Source: a virus. From it: 64,000 bases of DNA. Shown here piece by piece: positions 9,376-64,000 of this stretch. The notes below the pieces were generated by a model. That model ran no database searches, was not told where the DNA came from, and was given only the letters and a program-made list of their open reading frames with translations. Position numbers and translations under genes: made by a program. The DNA lies in IMG/VR virus record IMGVR_UViG_3300032268_001411, positions 1-64,000 of that record. One strand, given 5' to 3'. How positions within the stretch are numbered: position 1 is the first letter of the stretch; every line of letters starts with the position of its first letter.

Positions 9376-10011
9376 TTACTTTTTTTGTGCTTCTTCCTCA
9401 GTTTTTGTTGATTCATCCTCACTAACTGGATTAGACCTTTTTATCATTTCTTCTTTTCGAAGCCTCATTTCATTTTCTTTATGTTTTCTTTTCATCAATT
9501 CAAACTCTTTTTTGAGTTCTCTATCTAAATCAAAAATTTCTTTTTCTATTTCTTTAAATTTTTGAGAATTTTTTTCTATTCTATCATTGGTATTTCCCAT
9601 TTTGTCACCGGTGTAATCGAGAATACTCTGATTACCCTTGTTATCAGATATTGTTTTTTTATAATTCTCAATATCATCTTGATTTCCCTTGATAATCTCT
9701 TCCAAATCTTCTAATTGTCTTTTTAAGCTACAAATTTTTGCCCATTTTCCTAAATATTTATTTTTGAAATTTTTCTTTTTTGGATCAGCTGATTTATTCA
9801 CAATGAAACCTTTATTGAATAGTTTATTTTGTAAATCCTTTTCATTGAAATATGATTTATAGATGTTTTCTATATCAACTTTATAGCTATTAAACTTAGC
9901 GATGAGTTGCTCTTCATCATTTGCAAAGTTTTTATCCGATGCTGCTACTATAGAATCATCAGGTTGTGGAATAAACTTTTCACTTATAAACTGTTCGAAA
10001 GTTAGTATCAT
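9376..10011 (-). CDS. Coiled-coil protein with capsid-targeting-like leader (MILTFEQFISE)
   Basis: 211-aa charged helical ORF; leader resembles T4 internal-protein leader MKTYQEFIAE. Confidence 0.55.
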   Translation of the reverse strand: MILTFEQFISEKFIPQPDDSIVAASDKNFANDEEQLIAKFNSYKVDIENIYKSYFNEKDLQNKLFNKGFIVNKSADPKKKNFKNKYLGKWAKICSLKRQLEDLEEIIKGNQDDIENYKKTISDNKGNQSILDYTGDKMGNTNDRIEKNSQKFKEIEKEIFDLDRELKKEFELMKRKHKENEMRLRKEEMIKRSNPVSEDESTKTEEEAQKK

Positions 10012-12905
10012 TATAAGAAGTCTTTTAATTTTCCTGATAATCTTTTAGCACTGTCAATATCTTCTTTAAAAGGTACAGTTTGAGTGATTTTCATAGCTTC
10101 CCATTTGATTCCATCCGTATTTTTTGCCAATGCAGATATTTCGGTAATCGTCAAATTCAATTCACTTATTTGACCCCATTGATTTTTACCTATCAATTCT
10201 GCGTATTTGAATTTTAAATTTTTCCCAGTTGAAATGTTTTTCTCATCCAAATTCAATACACCTACTTGAATTTCTTGTTTAATATTTTCTATCGAAGATT
10301 CAACTTTGATTTCGTTAGCTACAATTTTATCCTTTAAATAATTATACACAAGGGGTGTCTTTTTACCAGTTTTGGTAAAGTGAAATCTAAAAACTAATCC
10401 TTTCTTACCGGAATCTGAAAGTATTCCCAAGAAATACATAATCATATGATTTACCTCACCAGCATTTTCCTTAAACTTAATTCTAATAAGTTCGTTATCG
10501 AAAATTCCACCATTAGCAAAATCTTTTAATTCTATTCTTGATCCCCTCTTTAGACTTCCACTCCAAAGTTCGAATGAAACCGTATCCTTTTCCCCTTTTT
10601 CGCTGTTATTCGTATTAAGAAATGATGATCTGTCTGCTTCACTTGCTGTCTCCTTATCTATATCTACAGCATCTGCTCCTCCAAAATATTCTTTAATAAT
10701 CTTCTTTCGTTGTTTTCTGAAATCGCCCTCACCGGCTAATAAGTCATTCATAAAATCTAATAGTGATCTACCAGCTCTTATCTTCTTGATTATTTCATCG
10801 CCTCCTTCAGCACCGTAACCTCTATCAGAATCTCTACCTTTAGTTTCACCAGAACCAAATTGACCTACACCTGGTGGCAAGAATCTTGCATTTGCTAATA
10901 TTTTTCTATATTTTGGTTTCTCTAACAGTCCCATTATTCCGTCTTGCCATTTATCAAATACAGCTATTGCTGCCCAAGGTCCTGGACCAGGAGTTTTATC
11001 AGCACCCCAATCCGGTACATTACTAGCACCCCCTATATAAGTATATTCTCTAAATGTCTTCAATGAAATCCTTCCTTCTGGTCTTCCAGAAGGTATGTAG
11101 TCTGTTGCATACATCCTATATGCTTTACCAAAAAGATTTACTATACGAATTATTCTATCTCTTGCCCCGGTACTACCTATTGGAAAAACATCTTCTACTT
11201 TTTCATCCACACTATCTTTTAATTCATTAATTTCTTTTACATCAACTTTCCATTCTTTTTCCTCACCCTCTTCAAAGTATTCATACCATAACTCTAATAT
11301 TTCATTTTCTACATCATCAGTATCCGCTTCTTCAAATAACCTGAATCTACGATAATCAAGAACTTTAGAATAATTTTCTTTCTTTTGACCTTCTTTATCT
11401 TTTTCTACAACTTTTTCTTTTTTAGGTAAATTAGGATAGATTTCTTTTAATTGACTATAGGACTCAATGATTTTTTTGATGGATTTCCCAGCTTCACCGA
11501 ATGTATTTACCAAACCTAAATCTTCTTTTAGACCTACCATTACTCTCAAAAGTAATGAAATATTTTTTGGTACTTCGCTATATCTACTTGAGATAGCTCC
11601 GTATTTTTCTTTTATTAGTGCTTCAAATGGTAGGGGCTTACCAACATTTTCACTATTTTGAACAATTTGTTTACCTATTGCGATTTGAACATTTTTATTT
11701 AGTTTTTCTCCTTCTTTTGACATATCAATCAATTCTTGAAGTAACTTTACTAAATTCGGCAAATTCACAGTTTTTGCTGCATTCAATATTTTCCTCCAAG
11801 ATGCTTTTGAATGAATCTCTGTCAATCTTATCACTTCCACATTCTCATAAATCGGGAGTGATTCGTTTTCAAAATAGAAACTCTCCTTTTTGGATAAATT
11901 TTTTGTATATACTGATTTTTGGGGAGAAGCAGATGTGTAATTATCATTCCGATCTTTAAAGGCAACAAATGTACTATCTTTACCTATTTGATTCCCTTTG
12001 ATATCATCTTTAGTTAACCATTTTTTATCCAGACCAGCAGATATAACATTGGTTGTTGAGATTGCTAAGGTAGGGAGTTTTTTACCATTTTTACTGGTAT
12101 GAATGTATTCTTTACCAGGTTGGATATTATCTTTTTTTGTTTGGGTATCACCCTCTATCAAGACTCTTTTATTCTGAATTATAGCATTAATAGATATAAG
12201 TGATTTAAAAATTTGAGTTACTTGCCAGAAAAAATTAAGTTCAGGATTCTTCTTTAAATCACCACCACTCATCTTTGATGGGTCTATATTTGAACTTTCA
12301 CCATCACCTCCCTCACTATCTCCTCCTTCACTATCTCCCTCTTCATCTTCCCCTCCTTCTTCCTCTTCACCCTCCTTTGGTTCAAATTCAACTTCCTTTA
12401 GAGCATCTCTAAATGCAATCAATTTTTTTAGGAGCTCGTCCTTTTCTGGTAAATATTCTTCTTTGATTTGTTCGACAGATTTGATACAATCGTTCAATAA
12501 CCCATCTTCATCATCTTTACCATCTCCTATTAAAGTTGTACACTTTTCATTAGTGCTAGCGTCACTTGATACAACGTTGAAAACTTCTGTTAGAAGACTG
12601 ATTACTTTTAATTTTTCAATTTTTCTCTTATTGTTTTCCCCCTCGATTACCAAATCACCAATTAATTGATTAAGTTCATTTTCCACTTGAGATACTACAC
12701 TATTAATTCGTAAACTTTTTGCATAAATCTTAGACTTTCTAATAAAAGAGTTTATAAGCCTACCCAACAAAGATCCACCCCAAGTGATTTGATTTTCTAA
12801 CGTTTCTCTTACTAATTGAGAACCACTATAATATTCTTGTATATTAGAGCTTTCTAACTTTATTTCTTTGTTTAGAAAATCATTTCTATTTTTTAAATAT
12901 CTCAT
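10011..12905 (-). CDS. Large hypothetical protein, candidate internal head protein
   Basis: 964 aa; leader MRYLKNRNDFL; internal leader-like segment KVLDYRRFRLFEE; acidic Gly-rich linker. Confidence 0.5.
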   Translation of the reverse strand: MRYLKNRNDFLNKEIKLESSNIQEYYSGSQLVRETLENQITWGGSLLGRLINSFIRKSKIYAKSLRINSVVSQVENELNQLIGDLVIEGENNKRKIEKLKVISLLTEVFNVVSSDASTNEKCTTLIGDGKDDEDGLLNDCIKSVEQIKEEYLPEKDELLKKLIAFRDALKEVEFEPKEGEEEEGGEDEEGDSEGGDSEGGDGESSNIDPSKMSGGDLKKNPELNFFWQVTQIFKSLISINAIIQNKRVLIEGDTQTKKDNIQPGKEYIHTSKNGKKLPTLAISTTNVISAGLDKKWLTKDDIKGNQIGKDSTFVAFKDRNDNYTSASPQKSVYTKNLSKKESFYFENESLPIYENVEVIRLTEIHSKASWRKILNAAKTVNLPNLVKLLQELIDMSKEGEKLNKNVQIAIGKQIVQNSENVGKPLPFEALIKEKYGAISSRYSEVPKNISLLLRVMVGLKEDLGLVNTFGEAGKSIKKIIESYSQLKEIYPNLPKKEKVVEKDKEGQKKENYSKVLDYRRFRLFEEADTDDVENEILELWYEYFEEGEEKEWKVDVKEINELKDSVDEKVEDVFPIGSTGARDRIIRIVNLFGKAYRMYATDYIPSGRPEGRISLKTFREYTYIGGASNVPDWGADKTPGPGPWAAIAVFDKWQDGIMGLLEKPKYRKILANARFLPPGVGQFGSGETKGRDSDRGYGAEGGDEIIKKIRAGRSLLDFMNDLLAGEGDFRKQRKKIIKEYFGGADAVDIDKETASEADRSSFLNTNNSEKGEKDTVSFELWSGSLKRGSRIELKDFANGGIFDNELIRIKFKENAGEVNHMIMYFLGILSDSGKKGLVFRFHFTKTGKKTPLVYNYLKDKIVANEIKVESSIENIKQEIQVGVLNLDEKNISTGKNLKFKYAELIGKNQWGQISELNLTITEISALAKNTDGIKWEAMKITQTVPFKEDIDSAKRLSGKLKDFL

Positions 12906-13110
12906 TAATTTTTTGATTAAATTTTTAGTATATATTATTTTTGATTTCTTTAAAAAATAAAAATTTTGATTTAATTGAATAATTTCAGTTCAAACACATA
13001 TTTTTTATTTTTAATTTTGAATTCCGGTAAATTTTGAAAATTTTCTAATATTAGTTTTTTAATCCCAAATTATCTTGATATATAAGATTATAATATTAAA
13101 CTTTAGTGAT

Positions 13111-13395
13111 ATGAGATTCTCAGAGCTTATTTACAATGACGAAAAAATTTATAGTGACTATAAAATCAATAGAATCCTCGAGAAGGAAAAGATGCAATGG
13201 TTAATCGATTCAGAAATCGAGTGTGCAAAAATCGAAATCAAAAACAAAACTCTGGTATGGCATGATGGTTACTTTTTCGGTGACTGGTATTATGGTATTT
13301 TCAAGAGTGGAGAATTTCACGGCAATTTTGAAAATGGAATCTTAGAAGGCGGTAATTTTTATGGAAATTTTGTTAGTGGAATAAAATTGATTTAG
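13111..13395 (+). CDS. Small protein with aromatic-x-x-Gly repeats (beta-solenoid-like)
   Basis: WHDGYFFGDWYYGIFKSGEFHGNFENGILEGGNFYGNFVSG; ATG at 13111 preferred over the track's TTG. Confidence 0.55.
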   Translation: MRFSELIYNDEKIYSDYKINRILEKEKMQWLIDSEIECAKIEIKNKTLVWHDGYFFGDWYYGIFKSGEFHGNFENGILEGGNFYGNFVSGIKLI

Positions 13396-13418
13396 ATATA
13401 AAAAACAATTTTCATCCT

Positions 13419-15459: not shown

Positions 15460-15984
15460 ATGGCAAAAGTTGCTCAAAAACAAGAAGAAGAAAGAAAAAT
15501 AATTTTTGATACTCAATTAGTCGAAGAAGTGACTAATAAGATTAACGATGGTGTGATTGTTAAAAGATTTCAAAATCCATGGTTTCAAAATGAAATCGGG
15601 GTTAGAAGATCAGGTATAACATTTAGATTAAGCGAAGATGAAATTCAAGAGTATATAAAATGTAAATTAGATATTAAATATTTTGCTGAAAAATATTGTA
15701 GAGTCAAAACCGAAGATGGATCTGTTAGTAATATAAAACTAAGAGACTACCAAAAAGGAATATTAGATTTATATACAAAAAACAGATTTTCAATACTATG
15801 CGCAAGCCGGCAAGTGGGTAAATGCTTTAATTTCAACACTTTGTGTAAAATGGAAGATGGTAAATTAGAAAGAATTGGTAAAATATATTATGATTTATTG
15901 AGAAAAGAAAGAAAATTAACGATTCTCGAAAAAATTAAAATATTTTTGTACAATTCCCTTTTCTCATTAGGCAGGAAGCCATAA
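15460..15984 (+). CDS. terL: Terminase large subunit N-fragment fused to N-intein
   Basis: EYIKCKLDIKYFAEKY...LRDYQ...CASRQVGK (Walker A up to the Lys), then CFNFNT (intein block A, Cys1 at 15823). Confidence 0.9.
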   Translation: MAKVAQKQEEERKIIFDTQLVEEVTNKINDGVIVKRFQNPWFQNEIGVRRSGITFRLSEDEIQEYIKCKLDIKYFAEKYCRVKTEDGSVSNIKLRDYQKGILDLYTKNRFSILCASRQVGKCFNFNTLCKMEDGKLERIGKIYYDLLRKERKLTILEKIKIFLYNSLFSLGRKP

Positions 15985-16012: not shown

Positions 16013-17029
16013 ATGGAAAAAATTCTAATTGAAGATAATGATGATTTGGTGACTTGTAGAATTTGTGGTGGTCGACATAAAAGATTGTACGGTAAACATT
16101 TTACTGTTAATCACAAAATCACTTCTAAACAGTATAAAGAAATGTTTCCTGGTGCTCCAATTATGTGTAAAAATGATATGAAAAAAACTACTTTGAATTC
16201 AGGTAAGCACATGAAAGAGGATAGATACAAACAAATGTTCCGTGAGAAGGTATTGGGTGAGAAAAATCCAAATCATAGAAGCAGAACAACAGAACAGGAA
16301 AGAAAGTCGAGAAGTCCATTTTCAAAACAGTTTATTGGATATTTTGATATTGAGAATAAAGAGGATCACATTAGTAAATTTGTTAAAGAAAGTTTAAAAG
16401 ATAGAATAACTTCAACACAAAAAGAATATTACATCAAGAAGGGTTTTAGTGAGGAAGATGCAACTAAGCTATTATCCGATAGACAAAAAACATTCAGTCT
16501 CGAAAAGTGTATTGAAAAGTATGGTGAGGAACAAGGTCATAAAAGATGGTCAGAAAGACAAAGTAAATGGCAAAAAAATCTATTGGAAAATGGAAATTTA
16601 AAATGTGGATACTCGAGTATAAGTCAAGAATTATTTTATGAAATAATTACCTATTATAAAAATAAATCTGATTTAATGGAAGTTTACTTTGCTACCAAGA
16701 ATAAAGAATATTTTATCAATACATCTGATTCTTTTTTTTCTTATGATTTCGTTGACATAAATAGGAAGAAGATTATAGAATATAATGGTGATAATTATCA
16801 TGCAAATCCGAATAGATTTTCTGAGAATGATTATCCACACCCGTTTAATAAAAAACTTGGTTTTTCCTCCAAAGAAATTTGGAACAGAGATAATCAAAAA
16901 AAATTGGTTGCTGAATCGAAGGGTTTTGAAATTTTGGTGATTTGGGATAGTGAATTTAAAAAAAATAAAAGTGAAATAATACACAAATGCTTACATTTCT
17001 TGGAAATAGAGACTATTGAAAATATTTGA
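16013..17029 (+). CDS. Free-standing Vsr-like/PD-(D/E)xK homing endonuclease inside the fractured terL locus
   Basis: N-terminal CRICG Zn-finger and GEKNPN motif; C-terminal YDFVD...IIEYNGDNYHANP...GFEILVIWDSE. Confidence 0.8.
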   Translation: MEKILIEDNDDLVTCRICGGRHKRLYGKHFTVNHKITSKQYKEMFPGAPIMCKNDMKKTTLNSGKHMKEDRYKQMFREKVLGEKNPNHRSRTTEQERKSRSPFSKQFIGYFDIENKEDHISKFVKESLKDRITSTQKEYYIKKGFSEEDATKLLSDRQKTFSLEKCIEKYGEEQGHKRWSERQSKWQKNLLENGNLKCGYSSISQELFYEIITYYKNKSDLMEVYFATKNKEYFINTSDSFFSYDFVDINRKKIIEYNGDNYHANPNRFSENDYPHPFNKKLGFSSKEIWNRDNQKKLVAESKGFEILVIWDSEFKKNKSEIIHKCLHFLEIETIENI

Positions 17030-17107: not shown

Positions 17108-19351
17108 GTGAAAGAATTTATAAGACGTATATTAATAAAATTTATTTACTTTCTGATTGAAATCATAGAAAAAATTGAGTTTAGAGAGAGAGATTTGGAC
17201 GAAGAAGATGTTTCGAAAAAAATTCTAAATACAATATCCAATTTGAATTTTAAGGTCCTGTCTGATAGTGGATTTGTGGATTGTACTGATATTCATATTA
17301 CGCAACCTTATAGAGTTTATTTTGTTAGTCTTGAGAATGGTTATTTTTTAGAGGCAGCGGATAATCATATTTTATTTGACAAAGATTTTGAAGAAATTTT
17401 TGTCAAAGATTTGAAAATAGGCGATTTTGTTCATACCGATTGTGGGTTGATAGCTGTTAAGACTGTGAAGAGGATGAATAGAAAACAATCCATGTTTGAC
17501 CTGAGTATCGATCATCCGGAACACAGATTTTTCACAAATGGTATATTGAGTCACAATACAATCAATGCTGCCATTACTATGTTACACTTCATTACATTCA
17601 ATAATGATAAGAATATTATGATTGTAGCGAATATCAGGGGTACTACAATTGAAATTATTGATAAAATAAAAAATATTTATGTTCAATTACCATTTTTTCT
17701 AAAATCCGGTATTAAAAATTGGAATCAACAATCTATCATTTTTGAAAATGGATGTCGAATAAAATCTTCAGCAAGAAGTAAAACTCCAGCAATCGGTTTT
17801 ACCATTGACTTTCTTTACCTTGATGAATTTGCACATATTCCATCTAATATTATTGAGCCTTATTATACTGCTGCCTTTCCAACCGTATCTGCAATTGAAA
17901 ATTCAAAGATTATTATCACTTCAACACCAAATGGAATGAATTTATTCTATAAGTTATTGACTAATGCTGAGAGACCTGAGGGTGATCCTTTGAAGAATAA
18001 CTATAAGGCAATGAGGGTTTATTGGTACCAAGTCCCGGGTAGATTTGTTACATATTTTAGATTAAATAATCATAGACTTTATGAAAACGGATTGACAAAA
18101 GAAGAAGTTTTTAATCAAGTTATTGAAGAATTTTCTGAAATTACCAAGGTTGAAATGAAATTCATACCAGATTTAACAAAGGATGTTATTTACATTTATA
18201 ATAATGAAAATTGCTCGGATATAGATGTTAAAAAATTTATTGTCCGAAAAGAAGATAGAGAAATTTCTATACATTCTATAGCTGAAGTTACGACTTGGAA
18301 AGAAGAAGCTATTAAAGATATTGGTGGTGAGGATGCTTTCAATCAAGAATATGGATTAAGATTTATAAACGCTACAAGATCTTTACTTAATGAGAATATT
18401 ATAGAACATCTATTAAATAATAAAAAACCTTTTATTTATAGGGACATTGAGGAGTTAGATAAAAAGTTAAAATTCTCTTATGGTGATTTGAAATGGATTG
18501 ATGACGAGGATGTCTTTTTACCTGAACAAAGAAAATCTGTAAAGGGTACAATCTCTATCGATATTTCTGAAGGGTTAGGTCAAGATTATTCGATAATTAA
18601 TATTTTCAAAATTAGGGAAAAATCAGATGATGTTATTGAATCACAGAAATTTAAGTATACACATTTAGCAGACTTTTTCTGCTTAGAACAAATTGGAATT
18701 TATAGATGTAATTACGCTTCTGTTAAACAATTAGCAGAGATTTTTTATCTTTTAGCTTTTGAATACTTTGATTATGAGAATTTCAAAGTTGTTTTAGAAT
18801 TAAATAATTATGGTAATGAATTCTTAGCACATTTACCTCACGTCTTTGAAGGAAAAAATAATTATGGTTCTAGTATATTTTTTAGGTATAAACATCGAGC
18901 AGATTCACCTGAAGAAAAAGTTGGATTAAAAGTTGGTGAGAATAAAAATATGTTAGTAAAGGATTATCAAGAAGCAATGGAAAAGAAAAATTTCATTGTT
19001 ACCAATGAAGATAATATTCGAGAAATTACGACTTTTGTTAAACATATCACTTCTGCTGGTAATATTAGATATGCTGCAGATATAGGGCACGATGATACAG
19101 TTATGTCTTTAGTAAATGCTGCTTCAGTATTTTCAAAGTTTGATTTTAGAGAAATGGTAGACGATTACGCAAACTCTATTGTAAGTAAAGAGAAGTTAAC
19201 CTACTGGAATCAAATTTTAAAACAAGTTGAATACACTGAGATCACTGATTATCAGAGTATATTGGATGTGAATAGAAAAAGAAGAATGGCAGAACAACTT
19301 AGAAATATGAATACTAAGATTCTTGGAAACAATAATTATGGTAGGTGGTAG
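17108..19351 (+). CDS. terL: C-intein (150 aa) fused to terminase large subunit C-fragment
   Basis: ADNH (block B), MFDLSI (block F), FFTNGILSHN|T (block G, +1 Thr at 17558); then Walker B LYLDEFAH, ITSTPNG, nuclease IDISEG and HDDTVM. Confidence 0.92.
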   Translation: MKEFIRRILIKFIYFLIEIIEKIEFRERDLDEEDVSKKILNTISNLNFKVLSDSGFVDCTDIHITQPYRVYFVSLENGYFLEAADNHILFDKDFEEIFVKDLKIGDFVHTDCGLIAVKTVKRMNRKQSMFDLSIDHPEHRFFTNGILSHNTINAAITMLHFITFNNDKNIMIVANIRGTTIEIIDKIKNIYVQLPFFLKSGIKNWNQQSIIFENGCRIKSSARSKTPAIGFTIDFLYLDEFAHIPSNIIEPYYTAAFPTVSAIENSKIIITSTPNGMNLFYKLLTNAERPEGDPLKNNYKAMRVYWYQVPGRFVTYFRLNNHRLYENGLTKEEVFNQVIEEFSEITKVEMKFIPDLTKDVIYIYNNENCSDIDVKKFIVRKEDREISIHSIAEVTTWKEEAIKDIGGEDAFNQEYGLRFINATRSLLNENIIEHLLNNKKPFIYRDIEELDKKLKFSYGDLKWIDDEDVFLPEQRKSVKGTISIDISEGLGQDYSIINIFKIREKSDDVIESQKFKYTHLADFFCLEQIGIYRCNYASVKQLAEIFYLLAFEYFDYENFKVVLELNNYGNEFLAHLPHVFEGKNNYGSSIFFRYKHRADSPEEKVGLKVGENKNMLVKDYQEAMEKKNFIVTNEDNIREITTFVKHITSAGNIRYAADIGHDDTVMSLVNAASVFSKFDFREMVDDYANSIVSKEKLTYWNQILKQVEYTEITDYQSILDVNRKRRMAEQLRNMNTKILGNNNYGRW

Positions 19352-19465: not shown

Positions 19466-19747
19466 TTAAGCTAATTCCATAGTCACTGTCAATCCAGCAC
19501 TTTTAAGTAAATTATACATTTTTTTGATTGTTTCTTGATCACCTCTTTTCACATCACATTTTCCAGTATAATGCACTAGAATAGCACATTGATTTGCTTG
19601 TTCTACTTCGTGTTTGCAATATTTAACAAGACATTCAATGACAAACTCAAAGGTATTAAAGTCATCGTTGTGAAGCATTAAAATGTAGGGTTTAGATAAA
19701 ATTTCGTCTAATTTTTCTTCTGTTTTTGATCTTGTAATTGTACTCAT
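19466..19747 (-). CDS. clpS: ATP-dependent Clp protease adaptor ClpS
   Basis: LMLHNDDFNTFEFVIECL...ANQCAILVHYTGKCDVKRG...GLT is the ClpS signature. Confidence 0.9.
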   Translation of the reverse strand: MSTITRSKTEEKLDEILSKPYILMLHNDDFNTFEFVIECLVKYCKHEVEQANQCAILVHYTGKCDVKRGDQETIKKMYNLLKSAGLTVTMELA

Positions 19748-46036: not shown

Positions 46037-46058
46037 TTAACATTATTTAAAATATGTC

Positions 46059-46894: not shown

Positions 46895-46897
46895 TCA

Positions 46898-47500: not shown

Positions 47501-47532
47501 AGCTTATATATTAAATAAGTCAAGTATAAAAA

Positions 47533-48780
47533 TCAAAAATTAAATTCTTCTTTAATTTTTTGATTAAAAATTTGTTCTATTTTCAATTTATGTTTTTTCG
47601 CACAGATTATACTATCGTGTACAGTAATCAATTTTACTTCTGGATAGATATCCATTACTTCCTTAATAATTTTATTAAAGATTAAATTTGATTCCAAGTG
47701 TTGTAGCTTGTGCGCTAAGATTTTATAGTTTTTATTTTTGGTTTTAAAGTCTTTAATAAAATCATAAATTGTTGGAAAAAATTTAGAGAATAATTTGGTT
47801 GACTTCGAATTATTATTTTTGCCAAAAAGTACTTTATAGATATGTTCTTTTATAACCCCCTTTTCCTTAATCTCGGAATTATCAATAAAGAAGTCGTAGA
47901 AAAGTCCATTTATTGTAAGATATCTAAATAGATTCAATTCTGATAGGGATATTCTATTATCATCTACACTATTTATAATTAGGTTAAGAAAAAGTGGCTG
48001 ACTATTTTTAATGTCAAATTCGATAGTCTCATCCCCTTCTATTTTTAGACAATTTTTTCTGATAAATGATTTAAGAATAGTAAAATTGGTATGAAATCTA
48101 CCAAAGTCATCAAAATGATAAAAGAGTTGATTCACATTAATACATTCAACACTATATTTATTTCTATTGTAGATATCGACATCTTGTAAAGTAGAATCTA
48201 AAAAGAAAATTGATTTTTCATATTCGATTTCCACTGAATACAAATCATTAATTAATTTGATTTTAACTTCTGGTAAAATTTTATTACTAAGATTCTTCTC
48301 TACTTCTATTTCAGATATAGAATTTTTGTGTTTTTTTAATAAAACTTTATCATAGTTTCTATAACGATTGATTTTACCACCAATTATATCATCACTCAAT
48401 TTATAAATTCTGGAGTTTTTTCCTTGTAGATAATTTTGAACTAAAATTAAATGGTTTACATTTACCAAATAGTCAATATAGTAGTTATATAAGTATCCAT
48501 ATTTATCTTTTAGTACAATTGAAGATAAATTAAACAGATTTTCTTTTTTGAAATAGTATTTTAGGATTAAGGTGTGTACTAAATCTATGATGTAGGCGGA
48601 TTTTAGCTTCTTTTCTTTCCATTCAAAAAATTCCGAATTGGATAAACTGGATAATGATTGTGGTAAAAATTGAACACTGAATTTCTTTTCAGTTTTTTTG
48701 ATTTCGAATTTTACCTTAGGTTTATATTCTATGACTTCACACATATCAATTATAAATTGATATGTGTGAAGTGTTTTCAC
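47533..48780 (-). CDS. Compact family-A polymerase-like protein with putative N-terminal wHTH
   Basis: GRFHTNF, EFDIKNSQP (motif A), K...KVLFG (B), LQHLES, TVHDSI (C); no exonuclease domain. Confidence 0.65.
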   Translation of the reverse strand: MKTLHTYQFIIDMCEVIEYKPKVKFEIKKTEKKFSVQFLPQSLSSLSNSEFFEWKEKKLKSAYIIDLVHTLILKYYFKKENLFNLSSIVLKDKYGYLYNYYIDYLVNVNHLILVQNYLQGKNSRIYKLSDDIIGGKINRYRNYDKVLLKKHKNSISEIEVEKNLSNKILPEVKIKLINDLYSVEIEYEKSIFFLDSTLQDVDIYNRNKYSVECINVNQLFYHFDDFGRFHTNFTILKSFIRKNCLKIEGDETIEFDIKNSQPLFLNLIINSVDDNRISLSELNLFRYLTINGLFYDFFIDNSEIKEKGVIKEHIYKVLFGKNNNSKSTKLFSKFFPTIYDFIKDFKTKNKNYKILAHKLQHLESNLIFNKIIKEVMDIYPEVKLITVHDSIICAKKHKLKIEQIFNQKIKEEFNF

Positions 48781-48831
48781 CTTTCAAAAGTTTAGTTAAT
48801 ATTTTATTAAAATTAAAAAAACTGGAATTTT

Positions 48832-50160
48832 TTAAATTCCAGCTTTCATATCTTTACCTTTATCCGGTACTCCACCTAACTTACCTTTTTTCTTTTTAGT
48901 TTCTTCACCTTCCTTTTCAATTTCATTGTAAACATCTGGATATACCTGTTCGGCACCATCAACGTCATATTTTACGTCAAACCATTTTGAAAAATCAACT
49001 AAACCTGTTCTCATTAATTCCGTTTCACCTTTTCTTTTATAGAACTCATCTATTTTAGATTGAATTTTATCAACAAAGGTATTGAAAATTACTAAAGTTG
49101 CATCAGTAAATAAACCAACTGGTTTTTTCCTTTTTTTATTGAATGAACCTAAAATCACTTTGAAAATATATTCGAACTTTTTATTTTCACTAATGATTTC
49201 TTTAGTCATTTTATTTGGAATTAGTTCTGTGTTGATTCTGAATTTATCTTTATCGAAAAATTGAGGTACAACAAAGTCAAAATTCATAAGGTCTTCTTTA
49301 ACTTCAGTTAAATAGATGTTAAAAATTTTACATATTAGGTAGATATAAATTTCTTCTCTTTTAGAACCTTTCAATTTAATCTCATTCATGTTTATCGACC
49401 CACAGAAGTTTAAAAAATTAATTAAGATTAAACTATAGATTTCAACGAAATCGGTTGAATTTGATTCTGAAAATCTAGTATATAGTGGATTCAATATTTC
49501 GAATGATACATCTAATCCATCAACATTAATTACAATTTTCTCAAGGTTCTTTTGAAAATCATCATTCATTAAAAATGAATTTTTGATTTGAGGATTCAGT
49601 AATTTATAGAAGAAGTAGGCAAACGATTTTTCACCGAACACATATTCCAAATCCCCCTCACTTGTATTTAAGAAGTATTTGATAGCTTCTTTTGAGTGAC
49701 TATTTAATGTGCCTTTAAAGATATAAGGAATTACATCTACTTCAAATAGTCTTGAATATTCGTCTAATTCTTCTGGTGTATAGTTAAATTTGCCGTTTTT
49801 GCAAATAGAAGTAAGTACGAGATTATTTTTTGGTATTCTGTTGTATTCAATGTTGGCTGGCTGTGGATCTGGAAAAAATTCAAAACAAAACCACCATTTT
49901 TTATCCATTAGACCCTTTACTCGGTCGCTAAAACTAAGAAAATAGTTTATAGCTTTATTATAGTAATTTTGTAGAGTTAGATCTATTAGATTGAGTGGAT
50001 CGTTAGAAATAGATTTGGCTTTTATTTGAAATTCTTGACCATTCCAGTTAACGAATATTTTAGAACCTTGTATGTCTTCGAATACGGTGATTTCTGAATT
50101 AAGAATTTTATCGATTAATTCGTCATCTTTAATTTGATTTAAAGTTATTAATTTACCCAT
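48832..50160 (-). CDS. RNA-ligase-fold protein, probably inactive
   Basis: VFEDIQGSK in place of EKxDG; FCFEFF, LVLTSI, IPYIFKG and EKIVI occur in ligase motif order. Confidence 0.45.
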   Translation of the reverse strand: MGKLITLNQIKDDELIDKILNSEITVFEDIQGSKIFVNWNGQEFQIKAKSISNDPLNLIDLTLQNYYNKAINYFLSFSDRVKGLMDKKWWFCFEFFPDPQPANIEYNRIPKNNLVLTSICKNGKFNYTPEELDEYSRLFEVDVIPYIFKGTLNSHSKEAIKYFLNTSEGDLEYVFGEKSFAYFFYKLLNPQIKNSFLMNDDFQKNLEKIVINVDGLDVSFEILNPLYTRFSESNSTDFVEIYSLILINFLNFCGSINMNEIKLKGSKREEIYIYLICKIFNIYLTEVKEDLMNFDFVVPQFFDKDKFRINTELIPNKMTKEIISENKKFEYIFKVILGSFNKKRKKPVGLFTDATLVIFNTFVDKIQSKIDEFYKRKGETELMRTGLVDFSKWFDVKYDVDGAEQVYPDVYNEIEKEGEETKKKKGKLGGVPDKGKDMKAGI

Positions 50161-50225: not shown

Positions 50226-50858
50226 TTGAAATACTTAAAAAAATATGGACTATTTGAATCTAATACAGAGATTGATTCAATTTGCCAAAAATATGGTATA
50301 CAAAACTACACTATTAATGGAGATGGAACGGTTGATGTTGATGGAGATGTTGATCTGTATAATAGAGGATTAACTAAACTTCCACTAAAATTTGGAAAGG
50401 TAAGTGGTAATTTTTATTGTTCTTATAATAAATTTACTACATTAGAGGGTTGTCCAAGGGAAGTAGTTGGTGATTTTTATTGTCACAGGAATCAATTAAC
50501 TACATTAGAGGGTTGTCCAAAGGAAGTAGGTGGTAGTTTTGATTGTTCCCATAATCAATTAACTACATTAGAGGGTTGTCCAGGGGAAGTAGGTGGGTAT
50601 TTTGATTGTGTAAATAATCAATTAACTATTATTAAAGGGGAATTGGAGTTTGTTAATATCAAAGTACCTCCCAATATTGAAAATAATCCTATACAAGAAG
50701 TTTATCAATTATTTCCCACTTTCAAATCATTTCAATATAGTCTAGATTATAATTACTTTAGATCTCCAAATCAAATTGTTAAACATAGATTTGAGGAAGC
50801 TTGCCAAGAAGCAGGTATAAAAATCCCGAAAAAAATAAAAGGATACCAATACATATGA
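50226..50858 (+). CDS. 22-aa LRR-like solenoid protein A with leader
   Basis: GxFxCxxNxLTTLEGCPxEV repeats (66 nt). Confidence 0.85.
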   Translation: MKYLKKYGLFESNTEIDSICQKYGIQNYTINGDGTVDVDGDVDLYNRGLTKLPLKFGKVSGNFYCSYNKFTTLEGCPREVVGDFYCHRNQLTTLEGCPKEVGGSFDCSHNQLTTLEGCPGEVGGYFDCVNNQLTIIKGELEFVNIKVPPNIENNPIQEVYQLFPTFKSFQYSLDYNYFRSPNQIVKHRFEEACQEAGIKIPKKIKGYQYI

Positions 50859-50889
50859 AATACTTAAAAAAATATGGACTATTTGAATC
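50227..50889 (+). repeat. 34-bp direct repeats (50227-50260 and 50856-50889) flanking LRR gene A
   Basis: tgaaatacttaaaaaaatatggactatttgaatc occurs twice identically. Confidence 0.95.
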
Positions 50890-51244
50890 AAACAAGCCAA
50901 ACTACCAAACGCTTCAAATAGGAGATTTTAAAGCTTATCGTGGAAGAGACGCCTCAGCAAATGAATATGTTACATTTCAATTAGCTGATGAAAATGACTT
51001 ATGGTTTCACGCAAAAGGAGTACCAGGTAGTCACTTAGTTATTAAAGTAGATGATAAATTAGTCACACCGGAAATAATTCAAAGTGCATCAGAAATCGTT
51101 GCTAAAAATTCTAAAACAAAAGAAAAAGAAGTTCAAGTAGTGTATTGCCAAAAGAAATTCGTGACTAAAGTTCAAGGAACTAATTTAGGACAAGTTAATG
51201 TTGATAAAATCAATGCTTATGAAATAACCGTTTCAATAAATTAA
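50855..51244 (+). CDS. Stand-alone NFACT-R (DUF814) RNA-binding domain protein with leader
   Basis: GRDASANEYVT...DLWFHAKGVPGSHLVIK...VVYCQKKFV; ATG at 50855 overlaps the LRR stop (ATGA). Confidence 0.85.
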   Translation: MKYLKKYGLFESNKPNYQTLQIGDFKAYRGRDASANEYVTFQLADENDLWFHAKGVPGSHLVIKVDDKLVTPEIIQSASEIVAKNSKTKEKEVQVVYCQKKFVTKVQGTNLGQVNVDKINAYEITVSIN

Positions 51245-51273: not shown

Positions 51274-52659
51274 ATGGGATTTTGGAAAGACCAACAACAA
51301 AAACAATTCGAAGGAGGTAGAGTCATAAAATTTACTGATGATTTTTGGCAAATGCTCGATAGAATTGCCATCGGCGCTCGAGGCAAAGGACACGAAAAAT
51401 TAATTTGGGATATATCAGGATTAGACTCAAATTCAACTATAAAAAACCCCATGGGAGTTGAACAAGTAGATATGTCAGATAACCAGTGGCACTTCGACCT
51501 AATAGTAAATGGTAAAAAAACAAAAATAAAAGTCTCTCAATTTATTAGAAACTTCTTCGGCGATGAATTCGATAGAAACGAAATCTATGACTTCACTCTT
51601 GAATACAACAAAATCATAGACAACCTAACAGAGTCTGATACATCTAATAGAATTACACCAAGACAATTTAAGTTTGAACCACTCAATGTAAGAGATACCT
51701 TTATTTCCCTTGTCACAGAAACCTATCCAATGGGTCACGAAGATGAACTACTACCATATATTACACCAGGACTTAAAAGAGATAAATTCGGTAACTATTA
51801 TTATATAATTGGTGATAGTGATACAGCTTTTACTTGCCACTTAGATACAGCATCAAGAAATAAAACTAATGTCAATTTAGTTTCACACCAAAAAGATGGA
51901 CAAGATTTTATTATAACTGATAAAACATCCATTTTAGGGGCAGATGATAAGGCTGGTGTTACAATCCTAATGTATATGATTGCTAAAAAAATACCAGGTG
52001 TTTATTGGTTTTTCTATGGTGAAGAAAGAGGTGGTCAGGGTTCGGCTAAAGTAGCAAATAACTTTGAAAACTATAAATTTATGAAAGGTATCAAAAAAAT
52101 GATATCCTTTGATAGAAGAAATTACTACTCAGTAATCACTCAGCAAATGAATTTACAATGTTGCTCAAATGAATTTGCTGATAATCTTTGTAAAGAACTA
52201 AATAAAAGTGGATTAAAATTAAACTTAGATCCAACCGGTGTATTTACTGATTCAGCTAATTTTATTGATTTAATTCCTGAATGTACTAATGTATCTGTGG
52301 GTTATTTTAACGAACATACACACGATGAAATGCAAAACATAACTTACTTAGAGAAATTATGTAAAGCTTGTGTAAATGTAAATTGGAAAGGATTGAAATC
52401 TTATAGAAAGATTGGTTTAGATGATGATGTATTCTTAAAATATAGTAGACTAATTAAAGTCTTAAAAAGAAATACTTTTTATAATAGTGATAGTACCAAG
52501 GGTTCTGCTGGAAAACTCTTGATACAATTAGAGATTGTTGATTCAGATCCAGATCACCTTTATCAGGATTTGGTAGACCTACAAAAAATATTTGCAACAC
52601 ACAGATTGGATCCAGATATTACATTTGATGAACAATTTATAAAAATTGAATTAAGTTAA
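51274..52659 (+). CDS. M28/M20-family zinc peptidase with extra N-terminal domain
   Basis: CHLDTAS, LGADDKAG, GEERG, SFDRR, TDS, NVSVGYFNEHT; paralogue of 45080..46036. Confidence 0.88.
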   Translation: MGFWKDQQQKQFEGGRVIKFTDDFWQMLDRIAIGARGKGHEKLIWDISGLDSNSTIKNPMGVEQVDMSDNQWHFDLIVNGKKTKIKVSQFIRNFFGDEFDRNEIYDFTLEYNKIIDNLTESDTSNRITPRQFKFEPLNVRDTFISLVTETYPMGHEDELLPYITPGLKRDKFGNYYYIIGDSDTAFTCHLDTASRNKTNVNLVSHQKDGQDFIITDKTSILGADDKAGVTILMYMIAKKIPGVYWFFYGEERGGQGSAKVANNFENYKFMKGIKKMISFDRRNYYSVITQQMNLQCCSNEFADNLCKELNKSGLKLNLDPTGVFTDSANFIDLIPECTNVSVGYFNEHTHDEMQNITYLEKLCKACVNVNWKGLKSYRKIGLDDDVFLKYSRLIKVLKRNTFYNSDSTKGSAGKLLIQLEIVDSDPDHLYQDLVDLQKIFATHRLDPDITFDEQFIKIELS

Positions 52660-52661: not shown

Positions 52662-53318
52662 ATGAGACTAAAGAAATATTTAGAATTAATTAAGGAATCT
52701 AAAAGTATAGATGGTTCAATTTTACAAAAATTACAAATCTATCTTACTGATTCAATCGGAAGTAGCGTTCGTTCATTAGGACTAACTGCTACTGATATGC
52801 AACAAATCTGTACTGATTTAGATATTGAAACTGTAGAAGAGTTTTTAGAATTTTATCCATTCCCGAATCAAAGAATTAGGGGATACGTAGAAGAGTTTTT
52901 CTCTGGTAAAGGGGAAGAATTATTCTACGGACAAGATGAAGAAGACTATTATAGTTTCGATGATGATGATGATGACGATGATGACGATGATGAGGAATAT
53001 GTAGAAGAGGATGAAGAGGATTTGGGTGGGGTGGCAGCATTAGCACACAGGATGTTAGAAGAAAGTGGTCTTGAGAATTTTTATGTTTCGAATAAGGGTA
53101 ATAATATTTCGATTCAATTTGTCTTAAACAAAAAGGAGAAGTTCTCTAAACTAACAAAGATACTCGGACTTATAAAGAAATTAGGTTCTGATATTCTAAT
53201 CCAATATGATTCTGAAATGGATTTATGGGAAACAAAAAGAGAAGATCCACTTTTAACTTTTGATTTCTATTATAATAAGGACACAAAAGGAAAATTTAAA
53301 GAAGATTTGCCTTTTTAG
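52662..53318 (+). CDS. Acidic hypothetical protein with leader and poly-Asp tract
   Basis: MRLKKYLELIKES; DDDDDDDDDDDEE. Confidence 0.65.
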   Translation: MRLKKYLELIKESKSIDGSILQKLQIYLTDSIGSSVRSLGLTATDMQQICTDLDIETVEEFLEFYPFPNQRIRGYVEEFFSGKGEELFYGQDEEDYYSFDDDDDDDDDDDEEYVEEDEEDLGGVAALAHRMLEESGLENFYVSNKGNNISIQFVLNKKEKFSKLTKILGLIKKLGSDILIQYDSEMDLWETKREDPLLTFDFYYNKDTKGKFKEDLPF

Positions 53319-53774: not shown

Positions 53775-54734
53775 ATGAAATATATTATTAAATGGGAAAA
53801 CTTCAATGAGTCCAAGGGTATATCAGATTCTTGTGAAAAAATATTAAATACAATATGGAGTGACATAGAAATCAATATTAATAATTCGAATTCATTTTAT
53901 TCACATTTCAATATAGATGAGTCAGATTTTAAGTGCAAAAATATTAGCTTAAATTTTACAATAGTCGAGGGGAATGAAAATTTATGTAACGCACAAACTA
54001 TACTAAATGATTCAAAAATAGAAAACGGTTATTTAACTAATTTGGAAATAAAAGTCAGTATTCTTTATAAAGAAATTGATGATGAATTTTTGTATTATAT
54101 AAAATCAGTTTTATTTCATGAGCTATTACACATATTTCAACATTATAATATTTTACTTGGTAATAAATTTAGACCAGAATCGTTTTCTATTGGCAGTGTA
54201 ATACCACAACTAAGGAATATCGTAAAAACAAAATTTGGTGAGTATATCTTGGATATTTTATACTATTCCCTAACACACGAGTTATCCGCTCAAATTCATC
54301 AATACTATTTATACAGAATAAATAATAGAGAATATAAAAGAATTTTTGATATAAGAAAACTTCTTGATAGATTTAAGATTAGCAATATTTCTCCAGATGA
54401 AGAAAATGATGTAAAATTTATAAAAAAACATATCATTGGATCTATTAAACATTTTACTAAAAATTCAAATTATTTGAAAGATAGCAATAAATCAATTTGG
54501 AGTGAAGATGATTTAAATAAATTTTTATTGAAATTCAAAAACTTATTGGACTTTAAAGTAAAATGGATAGACAAGAAAATGAAACTTATTGATGATAAGA
54601 TTAATCAAAGTAGAATTATAAAATATGATGAGAACATTACATTACCACAAGATTGGAACTTTTATGATATTTACAATGTTTATGATTTTATAAAAGAAAA
54701 TCTCAACGACGCAAAAAATAAAGATTTTGTCTAA
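53775..54734 (+). CDS. HEXXH zinc-metallopeptidase-like protein with leader
   Basis: LFHELLHIFQ with downstream HELSA; leader MKYIIKWENFNES. Confidence 0.6.
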   Translation: MKYIIKWENFNESKGISDSCEKILNTIWSDIEININNSNSFYSHFNIDESDFKCKNISLNFTIVEGNENLCNAQTILNDSKIENGYLTNLEIKVSILYKEIDDEFLYYIKSVLFHELLHIFQHYNILLGNKFRPESFSIGSVIPQLRNIVKTKFGEYILDILYYSLTHELSAQIHQYYLYRINNREYKRIFDIRKLLDRFKISNISPDEENDVKFIKKHIIGSIKHFTKNSNYLKDSNKSIWSEDDLNKFLLKFKNLLDFKVKWIDKKMKLIDDKINQSRIIKYDENITLPQDWNFYDIYNVYDFIKENLNDAKNKDFV

Positions 54735-61035: not shown

Positions 61036-61914
61036 TTAAATGTATTGATATCCTTTTATTTTTTCTGGTACAGTAATACCTGCTTCCCCACAAGCTTCTT
61101 CAAATCTATGTTTGACTATTTGATTTGGAGCTCTAAAGTAATTGTAGTCTAAACTATATTGAAATGATTTAAAATTGGGAAATAATTTATAGACATTATG
61201 TATAGGGTTATCTTCTATATCAAAATTTCTCCCAATTTTAACAAATTCTAATTCATCATTTATAATAGTTAATTGATTATTTGAACAATAAAAATCACCA
61301 CCTACTCCTTTAGGACAACCCTCTAATGTAGTTAATTTATTGTTATAACACCAAAAACTATCAACTACTTCCTTAGGGCAACCCTCTAATGTAGTTAATT
61401 TATTGTTATGACACCAAAAATTACCACCTACTTCCCCCGGGCAGCCCTCCAATGTAGTTAATTTATTATTATGACAATTAAAATTACCACCTACTTTCCC
61501 CGGACATCCCTCTAATGTAGTTAATTTATTGTTATCGCAATTAAAATTACCACCCACTTTCCCCGGGCATCCCTCTAATGTAGTTAATTTATTATTATGA
61601 CAATGAAAACTACCACCTACTTCCCCTGGACACCCCTCTAATGTAGTTAATTTATTATTGTGACAATAAAAATTACCACCTACTTCCTTAGGACACATAT
61701 TTAAATTATCTAAGTTATTGTATTCGCAAAAAAAGCTACCCGTAACTCTACCAAATTTTAGAGGAAGTTTAGATAGGTTTTTTTCGGATACTCTAACATT
61801 CCCATCAACATCAACCGTTCCATCTTCATTTATAGTATAATTTTGTATACCATATTTTTTGCAAATAGAGTCAATATCTTCAACTGATTCATTAAACTTT
61901 TTTAAGTATTTCAT
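61036..61914 (-). CDS. 22-aa LRR-like solenoid protein B with leader
   Basis: About 8 repeats GGxFxCxNNKLTTLEGCPxxV; caps closely similar to 50226..50858. Confidence 0.85.
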   Translation of the reverse strand: MKYLKKFNESVEDIDSICKKYGIQNYTINEDGTVDVDGNVRVSEKNLSKLPLKFGRVTGSFFCEYNNLDNLNMCPKEVGGNFYCHNNKLTTLEGCPGEVGGSFHCHNNKLTTLEGCPGKVGGNFNCDNNKLTTLEGCPGKVGGNFNCHNNKLTTLEGCPGEVGGNFWCHNNKLTTLEGCPKEVVDSFWCYNNKLTTLEGCPKGVGGDFYCSNNQLTIINDELEFVKIGRNFDIEDNPIHNVYKLFPNFKSFQYSLDYNYFRAPNQIVKHRFEEACGEAGITVPEKIKGYQYI

Positions 61915-63659: not shown

Positions 63660-63678
63660 GATATTTTAGTAATCTTAT

Positions 63679-63700
63679 TTTAATATATATATATATTAAA
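63679..63700. promoter_or_regulatory. Perfect 22-bp palindrome containing back-to-back TAATATATA late-promoter motifs
   Basis: tttaatatatatatatattaaa between divergent genes. Confidence 0.6.
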
Positions 63701-63720
63701 CTAAGACATACAATTTTTAT

Positions 63721-64000
63721 ATGATTAAATCTTATTACCAATTTATAATAGAATCCGTGCTATTTACCTCAAATCAATTCAAAGATATCTTGAAGTCTAT
63801 TGATGATGTAATCGCAAAAGACTTTCTCGAACTAATCGACCAGGATATAAAAACTACTTTTAATGCACTTAATGTCACTGATAAGAATGACACTATATCT
63901 TTTATTCCTGATAACCAATTTCAAAATAAAATCAAATCATCTAATTTAGAAAATTTATTAAAAGATGATAAAAATAAAACATCTGTAGGTCGCCTTATAC
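63721..64000 (+). CDS. Leader-bearing protein (partial), N-terminal domain paralogous to 57560..59218
   Basis: Manual translation MIKSYYQFIIESVLFTSNQFKDILKSI...ISFIPD...TSVGRLI, open to the window end. Confidence 0.75.
   Translation, partial: MIKSYYQFIIESVLFTSNQFKDILKSIDDVIAKDFLELIDQDIKTTFNALNVTDKNDTISFIPDNQFQNKIKSSNLENLLKDDKNKTSVGRLI

Follow-up and report, generated by a model that had tools for sequence, protein, structure and literature searches.

In a 64,000-nucleotide stretch of viral DNA (the window; positions 1 to 64,000 of IMG/VR virus record IMGVR_UViG_3300032268_001411), 14 open reading frames (ORFs) begin with the same type of short N-terminal leader, and 17 do so on the complete 75,593-bp linear contig, representing approximately 14 unrelated protein families. 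Judged from the sequence, this shared N-terminus is probably (roughly 0.6) a greatly expanded form of the capsid-targeting sequence (CTS) of bacteriophage T4, which would double as the propeptide removed by the prohead protease. This reading is supported by a leader that is real, N-terminal, selected as a peptide, modular, detached from the protein body and similar to the T4 CTS, and by the presence of a T4-type head module.

The completeness of the contig was estimated at 16% by CheckV, and its relatives indicate that it is a fragment of a huge phage (megaphage). For the DNA of its protease and major capsid protein (MCP) genes, the sole matches were to the uncultured phages of 634-735 kb described by Al-Shayeb et al., with approximately 70% identity, and 52 of the 74 contig proteins have homologues in LR756502, a 642-kb Mahaphage, most of them in conserved order at approximately 191-257 kb of that genome. 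The LR756502-type genomes of 634-735 kb are part of the Mahaphage clade, whose predicted hosts are Bacteroidetes (PMC7162821). The GC content is approximately 30%, and Shine-Dalgarno-like sites are absent. Near-identical DNA is present in freshwater and lake metagenomes, and approximately 5% of the words sampled from the contig occur in one metatranscriptome.

The leader takes two forms. Class 1 reads M-K/R-[YH]-[LI]-K-x-[YFW]..F-E-S, and the T4-like class 2 reads M-I-x-K-Y-x-x-F-[IL]-x-E-S; on the contig, class 2 appears as M-I-x-x-[YF]-x-x-F-[IL]-x-E-[SK], with its register shifted by one residue relative to class 1. The tagged genes are listed below and are named in the text by their low coordinate. 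Arrows mark presumed cleavage positions, and scores in bits refer to a position-specific scoring matrix (PSSM) that was trained on LR756502 only and then applied to the 74 contig N-termini.

9376-10011, minus strand: 211-aa ORF; class-2 leader MILTFEQFISE↓K, encoded at 9979-10011
10011-12905, minus strand: 964-aa ORF; leader MRYLKNRNDFLNKEIKLE↓S, encoded at 12852-12905; 12.5 bits
20860-21525, plus strand: 221-aa ORF; leader MKHIRNFEGY...IIKE↓S; 12.6 bits
21610-22227, plus strand: 205-aa ORF; leader MKYLSQYKDFDNE↓S; 18.0 bits
50226-50858, plus strand: LRR-like 210-aa ORF with a TTG start; leader (M)KYLKKYGLFE↓S; 22.7 bits
50855-51244, plus strand: 129-aa NFACT-R protein (Pfam NFACT-R_1, 2e-11); leader MKYLKKYGLFE↓S, identical to that of 50226
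52662-53318, plus strand: 218-aa ORF; variant leader MRLKKYLELIKE↓S, missed by the anchored class-1 PSSM
53775-54734, plus strand: 319-aa ORF with an HExxH motif; leader MKYIIKWENFNE↓S; 13.7 bits
54988-55656, plus strand: 222-aa endonuclease-like ORF; borderline leader MRILKYFENFLNQS, 7.5 bits
57560-59218, minus strand: 552-aa ORF; class-2 leader MINRYKDFLLE↓S, followed by a second LLLE↓S
61036-61914, minus strand: LRR-like 292-aa ORF, paralogue of 50226 and 61911; leader MKYLKKFNE↓S; 21.7 bits
61911-62903, minus strand: LRR-like 330-aa ORF; leader MKYLKKYKNYIKE↓N; 16.7 bits
62907-63659, minus strand: 250-aa ORF (phrog_36119); weak, diverged leader MFRKILEFQNF, not significant alone
63721-64000, continuing to 65760 on the contig, plus strand: start of a 679-aa ORF, paralogue of 57560; class-2 leader MIKSYYQFIIE↓S
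69252-69749 (minus strand), 69754-70413 (minus strand) and 71657-72325 (plus strand), beyond the window: three further ORFs with leaders among the contig N-termini

The initial annotation of this DNA had quoted thirteen such N-termini and a weaker fourteenth, and all of them were found at the ORFs to which they had been assigned. Its coordinates identified the right ORFs, but genes on the minus strand were cited by the low coordinate, whereas their start codons lie at the high end; the start codon of 50226 is TTG, not ATG. A hydrophobic-x-Glu end followed by a small residue is present in 13 of the 17 leaders, with FISE↓K, KLE↓S, IKE↓S, LFE↓S, FNE↓S, LLE↓S, IIE↓S and IKE↓N as the ends seen, and was not found in the leaders of 54988, 62907, 69252 and 71657. 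The proposed enrichment over shuffled controls held in three analyses. A strict regular expression matched 5 of the 74 N-termini and 0 of 320 internal Met positions, compared with a mean of 0.04 in 2000 composition-preserving shuffles. An anchored two-component mixture model gave a log-likelihood ratio with a z of 4-5, a value reached by 0 of 200 shuffles; it replaced, together with the cross-genome PSSM, an unanchored zero-or-one-occurrence-per-sequence expectation maximization over the first 22 residues, which was overfitted (z of approximately 2). Of the 74 contig N-termini, the PSSM placed ten at 7.5-22.7 bits and the next best at -2.6, and its maximum over 21,244 internal contig windows was 9.5. 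The ten positive ORFs are 50226, 50855, 61036, 21610, 61911, 53775, 20860, 10011, 54988 and 69252, of which only the last lies outside the window. Chance as the source of the leader was rejected by the regular expression, the mixture model and the cross-genome PSSM.

The class-2 leaders of 9376 (MILTFEQFISE), 57560 (MINRYKDFLLES) and 63721 (MIKSYYQFIIES) were missed by the anchored PSSM. Their T4-type core, [YFW]xx[F..][ILV]xE, is enriched 15- to 33-fold within residues 1-9, and these leaders are kept in their orthologues. The leaders of 52662 and 62907 are supported by their LR756502 orthologues only: that of 52662 starts MKLKKYKDIFEK, and that of 62907, MIMLSKFYEFKE, fits the strict regular expression. 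The 54988 leader is borderline in score and lacks the Glu-Ser end. The leader was absent from ThyA, Fpg, the gp44-like clamp loader, Dam, the tail sheath, large terminase (TerL), the portal, the MCP and the homing endonucleases, in agreement with the earlier claim that it is missing from ThyA, Fpg, clamp loader, Dam and tail proteins (checked here for the sheath). A Sec, Tat or lipoprotein signal peptide was rejected, as the leaders are amphipathic and charged throughout (e.g., MKYLKKYGLFES). A neighbouring ORF at 20265 (MKYLLAILFSISIGG) resembles a true signal peptide, unlike the leaders.

When the leader was removed, relatedness among the tagged contig proteins was limited to the LRR trio (50226, 61036 and 61911) and the 57560/63721 pair, and the tagged proteins therefore represent approximately 14 independent families. 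A single paralogous family was accordingly rejected, similarity past the first ~16 residues being confined to these two groups. PHROG profiles were mostly empty for the tagged proteins. The 9376 gene, which lies between the genes for the 964-aa leader protein and the tail sheath, had no Pfam match and a weak PHROG match to an adhesin (E=0.0012). For the 964-aa protein of 10011, no match was obtained in PDB (phmmer) or Pfam and no usable match in the ESM Atlas; its LR756502 orthologue starts MRYLKQREEF, with 26% body identity over a 260-aa aligned segment. The orthologues of 20860 and 21610 start MKHIRQFESY and MKYIKTYENH, respectively, and the homologue of 63721 starts MKINNYIDFISES. The 21610 and 53775 proteins had no match in PDB by phmmer, and 53775 had no family match in Pfam or PHROG either. 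ORF 54988 matched the phrog_4645 endonuclease at 1e-29 and LAGLIDADG_3 weakly, and thus resembles an endonuclease of the LAGLIDADG/HNH type. The body of the 57560 protein is weakly GNAT-like with C-terminal CxxCxGxG zinc-finger repeats, and Foldseek with its model returned weak GNAT and zinc-finger matches only. Of the functions proposed for the cargo in the initial annotation, NFACT-R agrees with the Pfam match of 50855 and the HEXXH protein with the motif in 53775. The LRR label is weak, its matches lying below the Pfam cut-offs (LRR_4 on 50226), and the labels "cysteine hydrolase" and "NTase" found no support in Pfam or PHROG.

The head module of the contig contains the three T4-type genes below.

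31556-33307, plus strand: gp20-type portal; Pfam Portal_T4, 1.6e-53
35999-38179, plus strand: 726-aa prohead protease with a scaffold-like domain; phrog_207, 1.7e-29
38258-40024, plus strand: gp23-type MCP; Pfam Gp23, 4e-26

The protease gene product consists of a protease domain (approximately residues 1-165), the site SINE↓S (36491-36505), a series of repeats, the site RLFE↓SN (37439-37453) and an acidic tail. Twelve tandem 14-aa units NIAYSEY[ILV]AENLDK (repeat unit NIAYSEYIAENLDK) are encoded at 36887-37390, and a match YLDYLAEK at 36770-36793 brings the total to 13 units. The repeat core Y-S-E-Y-I-A-E compares with Y-Q-E-F-I-A-E in the T4 CTS, and the boundary sites I-N-E↓S and L-F-E↓S equal the ends of leaders (FNES and LFESN). 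The repeats were kept in all 54 complete protease homologues among 80 IMG/VR loci, with 8-14 Y[SA]EY[ILV]AEN units each. A protease-scaffold fusion with a periodic, predicted cleavable repeat is unusual in itself. The N-terminus of the MCP is homologous to the T4 gp23 propeptide in an alignment that included the LR756502 MCP (KKWAPVLEN vs NKWKPLLEG), and a candidate cleavage site, T-I-N-E↓N, lies at 38375-38392, with I-N-E↓N conserved. The sites SINES and RLFES in the protease and HTINE in the MCP propeptide, which the initial annotation had pointed out, are thus all present.

N-termini of T4 proteins were read from AF158101. IPII and IPIII start MKTYQEFIAE↓A, gp24 MAKINELLRE↓S and Alt MELITELFDE↓D; gp22 starts MLKEQLIAEA and also contains ...SIFES. 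T4 gp2 (gene 2, at 12062-12886 on the minus strand of the T4 stretch) starts MAIFQIINES, which fits a loose class-2 pattern. This DNA-end protector is carried in the virion and enters the cell with the DNA. The leader PSSM gives 3.2 bits to Leu/Ile at position 4 and 3.8 bits to Tyr/Phe at position 7. In the CTS of IPIII, targeting depends on residues 4 and 7, and processing on residues 8 and 10 (PMC9026906). The leaders conserve positions 4 and 7 and the hydrophobic-x-Glu end, the same as the determinants of the T4 CTS, and the likeness to T4 that had been proposed is therefore upheld, together with the T4-type portal, protease and MCP.

The codons of the leader indicate that selection acts on the peptide. 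Lys5 is encoded by AAA and AAG at 48/52, Glu11 by GAA and GAG at 54/46, and Ser12 by both TCN and AGT, while the upstream DNA of the tagged genes shows conservation of at most 0.4 bits per position. Replacements are conservative at the amino-acid level (H/Y, L/I, Y/F/W and F/Y), and orthologue families with 38-89% identity hold the leader under strong purifying selection. In the 552-aa family (57560), nearly all of 120 homologues start M[LI]xKYxDF[LI]FES, with nearly invariant Tyr5, Phe8 and Glu11 and a second LLES directly after the leader. In the NFACT-R family, nearly all of 95 homologue clusters start MKYLKxF..ES; the length of the leader varies (F-ES, FN-ES, FKIF-ES and FEKFL-ES), and Met1 and Glu11 are invariant despite the indels. 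The free synonymous variation and the invariant Glu in an indel-rich leader both argue for selection at the peptide level. The NFACT-R orthologue of LR756502 carries no leader and has an unrelated 117-residue N-terminus instead. AlphaFold2 models of both families show the leader as a short detached helix of low confidence. The mean predicted local distance difference test (pLDDT) score of the 552-aa protein is 83.9, with only residues 1-15 below 50, and that of the NFACT-R protein is 90.6, with the domain above 93 and residues 1-10 at a mean of 53. Such a combination of conservation and missing structure is typical of linear motifs that another protein reads.

The 34 nt after the start codon of 50226 (50229-50262) are repeated exactly at 50858-50891, in the next gene. 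The first copy of this leader DNA follows TTG and the second ATG, so that the two copies bracket the LRR gene. As far as can be read from the sequence, a cassette appears to have entered here by recombination in the leader, leaving the repeat as its trace.

The leader census in LR756502 was performed on the first 350 kb, with 494 ORFs. Approximately 97 of these (20%) carry the leader: 81 start MK[HY]LKxYK[IL]FES (class 1), compared with 0.05 expected by chance, and 16 further ORFs have the T4-like form, compared with 4.3±2.1 in shuffles. Without the leader, the 97 proteins form 72 BLAST clusters, 68 of which are singletons; the largest have 18 and 7 members, and tagged genes stand in tandem arrays. 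The tagged proteins are mostly acidic, and transmembrane-like segments were found in 3% of them vs 17% of the others, as suits a soluble cargo. Few have Pfam domains, namely SET, methyltransferase, HNH, RNase T and DUF6576. Between the contig and LR756502, the leader is retained in orthologues even at 26-45% body identity.

Beyond LR756502, the 80 IMG/VR loci with protease homologues (35-86% identity) contained 85 ORFs with the leader among 1228 neighbouring ORFs. In the most distant of these lineages, the gene adjoining the MCP gene starts MKRVKSYNEFIAE↓S, which is practically the T4 CTS. The class-1 PSSM gave zero matches in 79 ORFs of T4, 53 ORFs of Tenacibaculum phage PTm1 and 40 ORFs of Lak-A1. 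PTm1, the nearest cultured phage covered by the analysis, is an AT-rich Bacteroidota jumbo phage with a related MCP, and the leader was found in 0 of the 53 ORFs in its first 50 kb, which makes it unsuitable as a cultured proxy. The Prevotella Lak megaphages, whose MCP is 30% identical, have an N-terminal tag of their own, MNKxIKxL[LI]E[SN]LFDD, on unrelated proteins including an LRR homologue (5 of the 40 ORFs in Lak-A1 25,001-75,000, compared with 0.24 in shuffles), and their proteases contain RINE↓SL and YLNE↓SV after the protease domain. Since the Lak phages put a different tag on an LRR homologue, the tag follows the phage lineage and not the cargo.

The MCP, protease, sheath, portal and TerL genes each have a promoter-like box, (T)TAATATATA, 26-36 nt upstream, for example approximately 35 nt upstream of 38258, 35999 and 9299 (minus strand). 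The box also precedes the transcription units that hold tagged genes, as well as many others, and it was absent upstream of ThyA, Dam and the clamp loader. That head genes and tagged genes share it counts in favour of capsid targeting. For most tagged genes of the contig, the box lies at -27 to -40, the same as for the structural genes, and at 21610 it lies 5 nt upstream of the ATG. In LR756502, 46 of the 97 tagged genes have the box just 5-6 nt before the ATG, so the mRNAs of these genes may be leaderless. The longer spacing on the contig indicates that the leader peptide is independent of such a layout. The T4 late promoter TATAAATA was not enriched upstream of tagged genes.

Under the capsid-targeting reading, the tagged proteins would be made late in infection together with the head proteins. 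Their leader, an amphipathic stretch of 9-20 residues in which position 4 is aromatic or aliphatic, position 7 or thereabouts is aromatic and hydrophobic-x-Glu follows, would dock on a scaffolding core, and the capsid shell would close round this core. The core itself would be formed by the repeat domain that the gp21-like protease carries as a fusion. The protease would then cut the leader after Glu (E↓S or E↓N), as well as the scaffold repeats (Y-S-E-Y-I-A-E↓N), its own boundaries (I-N-E↓S and L-F-E↓S) and the capsid propeptide (I-N-E↓N). The mature cargo would stay in the head with the DNA and enter the host at infection. We infer scaffold docking, cleavage, packaging and injection from the features described above, and the broad injected payload put forward in the initial annotation, which depends on packaging, cleavage and injection, is therefore proposed on the same conditional terms.

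Several observations weigh against capsid targeting. The scale is extreme, at approximately 20% of the LR756502 ORFs, and many tagged genes of LR756502 lie in arrays of small genes that resemble hypervariable accessory regions and not head modules. Some of the cargo is odd: the endonuclease-like 54988, a DxDxT (HAD-like) ORF, the NFACT-R RNA-binding domain and, in LR756502, a tagged protein with a PQ-loop match. The tail sheath gene is directly preceded by two tagged genes, and the tagged proteins are mostly acidic, whereas the internal proteins of T4 are basic. The match of the prohead protease to Peptidase_S77 (2e-5, 24.5 bits) is below the Pfam cut-off of 27. A PSSM made from the scaffold repeats only, with which 52662 had the second-highest score, enriched N-termini weakly (6 vs 2.5 expected, and 2 vs 0.4), so the step in which the leader mimics a scaffold unit is argued from likeness at the level of the pattern. 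Ile9 is always encoded by ATA (19 of 19), and His3/Tyr3 favour C-ending codons; these skews point to shared, recent ancestry of some leaders or to a minor nucleotide or translation constraint. For this clade, packaging and cleavage are deduced from sequence.

The contig also contains genes that bear on other explanations or that were observed in passing. A ClpS adaptor gene lies at 19466-19747 on the minus strand (Pfam ClpS, 8e-18), with a 60% identical counterpart in LR756502; the phage ClpS may redirect host ClpAP N-degron proteolysis. Two genes encode phrog_4191 (M28-like) peptidases, at 45080-46036 (minus strand) and 51274-52659 (plus strand). The second belongs to the head module, where it has the NFACT-R gene on one side and a tagged gene on the other, a position that is kept in LR756502 and in the IMG/VR relatives. 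Other contents include the large terminase, a 1408-aa tail sheath and several large homing endonucleases. Four large homing-endonuclease genes (542-658 aa; phrog_3339/phrog_559) interrupt the structural region, and two of them flank the protease and MCP genes:

3291-4976, minus strand: homing endonuclease
27101-28888, minus strand: homing endonuclease
34217-35845, minus strand: homing endonuclease
40123-42099, plus strand: homing endonuclease

In LR756502, TerL is a single protein of 712 aa; here it is split into two plus-strand ORFs, 15460-15984 (matching residues 3-121 of that protein) and 17108-19351 (matching residues 121-709), which are separated by a 338-aa ORF (16013-17029, plus strand). 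The block 42944-50160, which includes ThyA, Fpg and an M28-like peptidase among others, is inverted relative to 237,686-250,401 of LR756502. The contig starts (1-798, minus strand) inside a 27-bp tandem repeat coding for a collagen-like Gly-x-y protein, and this repeat probably explains the assembly break.

The same leader could be read by a different partner: some other enzyme, of the phage or of the host, would recognize or process it as a tag, and the tagged proteins would work unpackaged in the cytoplasm. Regulated proteolysis via the phage ClpS and Clp, trimming by an M28-like peptidase and a modifying enzyme of the RiPP (ribosomally synthesized and post-translationally modified peptide)/radical-SAM type are the candidates. 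We consider this unlikely. The phage does encode ClpS and two M28-like peptidases, one of them beside tagged genes in the head module, and a detached, conserved N-terminal peptide would suit any linear-motif function. However, ClpS reads N-terminal Phe, Leu, Trp or Tyr and not Met-Lys, and M28 enzymes are exopeptidases. The radical-SAM profile PF04055, the only modifying enzyme searched for, had no match on the contig, and the single radical-SAM gene of LR756502 lies at 148 kb, away from the main leader arrays (10-95 kb). The conserved residues of the leader (Lys, His/Tyr, Leu, Tyr, Phe, Glu and Ser) include no Cys or typical modification site, and an enzyme tag leaves unexplained both the 13 copies of the motif in the protease-scaffold protein and the match to the T4 CTS.

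Inheritance offers another account, in which the tagged genes are one fast-evolving family or share a recombining 5' cassette, the helix being inherited baggage or a generic oligomerization or stability element. The exact 34-nt duplication on either side of the LRR gene, the tandem arrays of LR756502 with 18-member and 7-member clusters that persist after leader removal, and the uniform ATA codon of Ile9, which hints at recent shared ancestry of some leaders, all fit this account, but 68 of the 97 LR756502 tagged proteins are singletons without their leader, and the leader occurs on domains of independent origin (NFACT-R, SET, methyltransferase, HNH and RNase T). Its maintenance under purifying selection with an invariant Glu, and its variable length with a fixed end motif, also speak against baggage, and we regard common descent as distinctly improbable. 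It is very improbable that the conservation reflects a DNA or mRNA expression signal, either a promoter-plus-start cassette or an optimization of the 5' coding region for leaderless or Shine-Dalgarno-less translation in Bacteroidota, with the peptide as a by-product. The box close to the ATG in nearly half of the LR756502 tagged genes, the possibly leaderless mRNAs and the genome without Shine-Dalgarno-like sites would favour such a signal, as would the preference for AAA at codon 2 (88% vs 61% genome-wide) and for C-ending codons at codon 3. Nevertheless, synonymous variation at Lys5, Glu11 and Ser12 is free, amino-acid substitutions are conservative, the upstream DNA is poorly conserved and the box of the contig genes is mostly distant from the ATG; PTm1, AT-rich and from the same kind of host, lacks such N-termini in the 53 ORFs covered. 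Capsid targeting therefore remains our preferred reading.

If the leader does address proteins to the capsid, what uncultured megaphages package and inject could be predicted by a simple rule read from the sequence, and candidate effectors of host takeover and anti-defence could be listed directly. Such an address would also account, in part, for the enormous gene content of megaphages and their small ORFs without relatives, and would widen the T4 CTS principle from a few internal proteins to sorting on a genome scale. As a tentative extension, which we hold to be doubtful at present, the Mahaphage clade would load at least 100 different proteins, approximately a fifth of its coding repertoire, into the capsid by one T4-derived tag, so that infection starts with an injected takeover and anti-defence proteome; this cargo would span methyltransferases, nucleases, LRR binders and RNA-binding domains. 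Under this extension, the tag may act as an imitation of the repeat unit in the protease-fused scaffold, and recombination inside leader DNA may bring in new cargo genes. The ~12-residue leader is a candidate for loading foreign proteins into large capsids. To our knowledge, the mode of CTS recognition is still open in T4 itself, and the link between tag and scaffold repeat offers a concrete, testable model of it.

Among known systems, the cargo-loading peptides of encapsulins are likewise short, detached, conserved terminal peptides that can be recognized by sequence. An encapsulin peptide sends unrelated enzymes into an HK97-fold shell. Unlike the leader, it is C-terminal in most systems, binds the shell protein and not a scaffold, and is not removed by a protease; neither DNA nor injection is involved. 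Closer are the propeptides of head and ejection proteins in phiKZ, 201phi2-1 and SPN3US, which are cut by gp175/gp245 at S/A/G-x-Glu (PMC5694885, PMC7411985, PMC10052503). These, too, are giant myophages; their protease is related to gp21 and cuts after Glu, many of their internal head proteins are processed, and the SPN3US paralogues gp53 and gp54, with identical N-termini, were proposed to be CTS-like. However, the propeptides of this group are mostly 80-130 residues long and share no single short tag, P3 is small (Ala, Ser or Gly) and not hydrophobic as here, and only 8-19 proteins are processed.

The closest system is that of T4, in which the CTS is present on IPI, IPII, IPIII, Alt and the gp24 propeptide and is removed by gp21 (Mullaney & Black 1996, via PMC9026906, PMC5694885). 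Like the T4 CTS, the leader is N-terminal, has approximately 10-20 residues and stands on otherwise unrelated proteins; it begins with Met-Lys, has hydrophobic or aromatic residues at positions 4 and 7 and ends with hydrophobic-x-Glu followed by a small residue, and the phage has a gp20/gp21/gp23-type head module. The class-2 leaders (Y-x-x-F-[IL]-x-E↓S) and the Y-N-E-F-I-A-E↓S of the related lineage are nearly equal to Y-Q-E-F-I-A-E↓A of T4. The two systems differ in number, with approximately 5-8 tagged proteins in T4 compared with 17 tagged ORFs on a 75-kb fragment and approximately 20% of the ORFs in its 642-kb relative. A second form, MK[HY]LKxYK[IL]FES with Phe at P2, dominates here, the cargo is mostly acidic, and the system is known from sequence data, in contrast to T4. 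That a CTS lets T4-like phages load varied proteins is an idea already known (PMC9026906), and our literature search found no paper with these motif strings or linking Mahaphage or other huge phages to capsid targeting. New here are the scale, the clade, whose genomes are the largest known for phages, and the occurrence of the motif as repeat unit in a scaffold that, unlike that of T4, is fused to the protease and built of motif-bearing 14-residue repeats.

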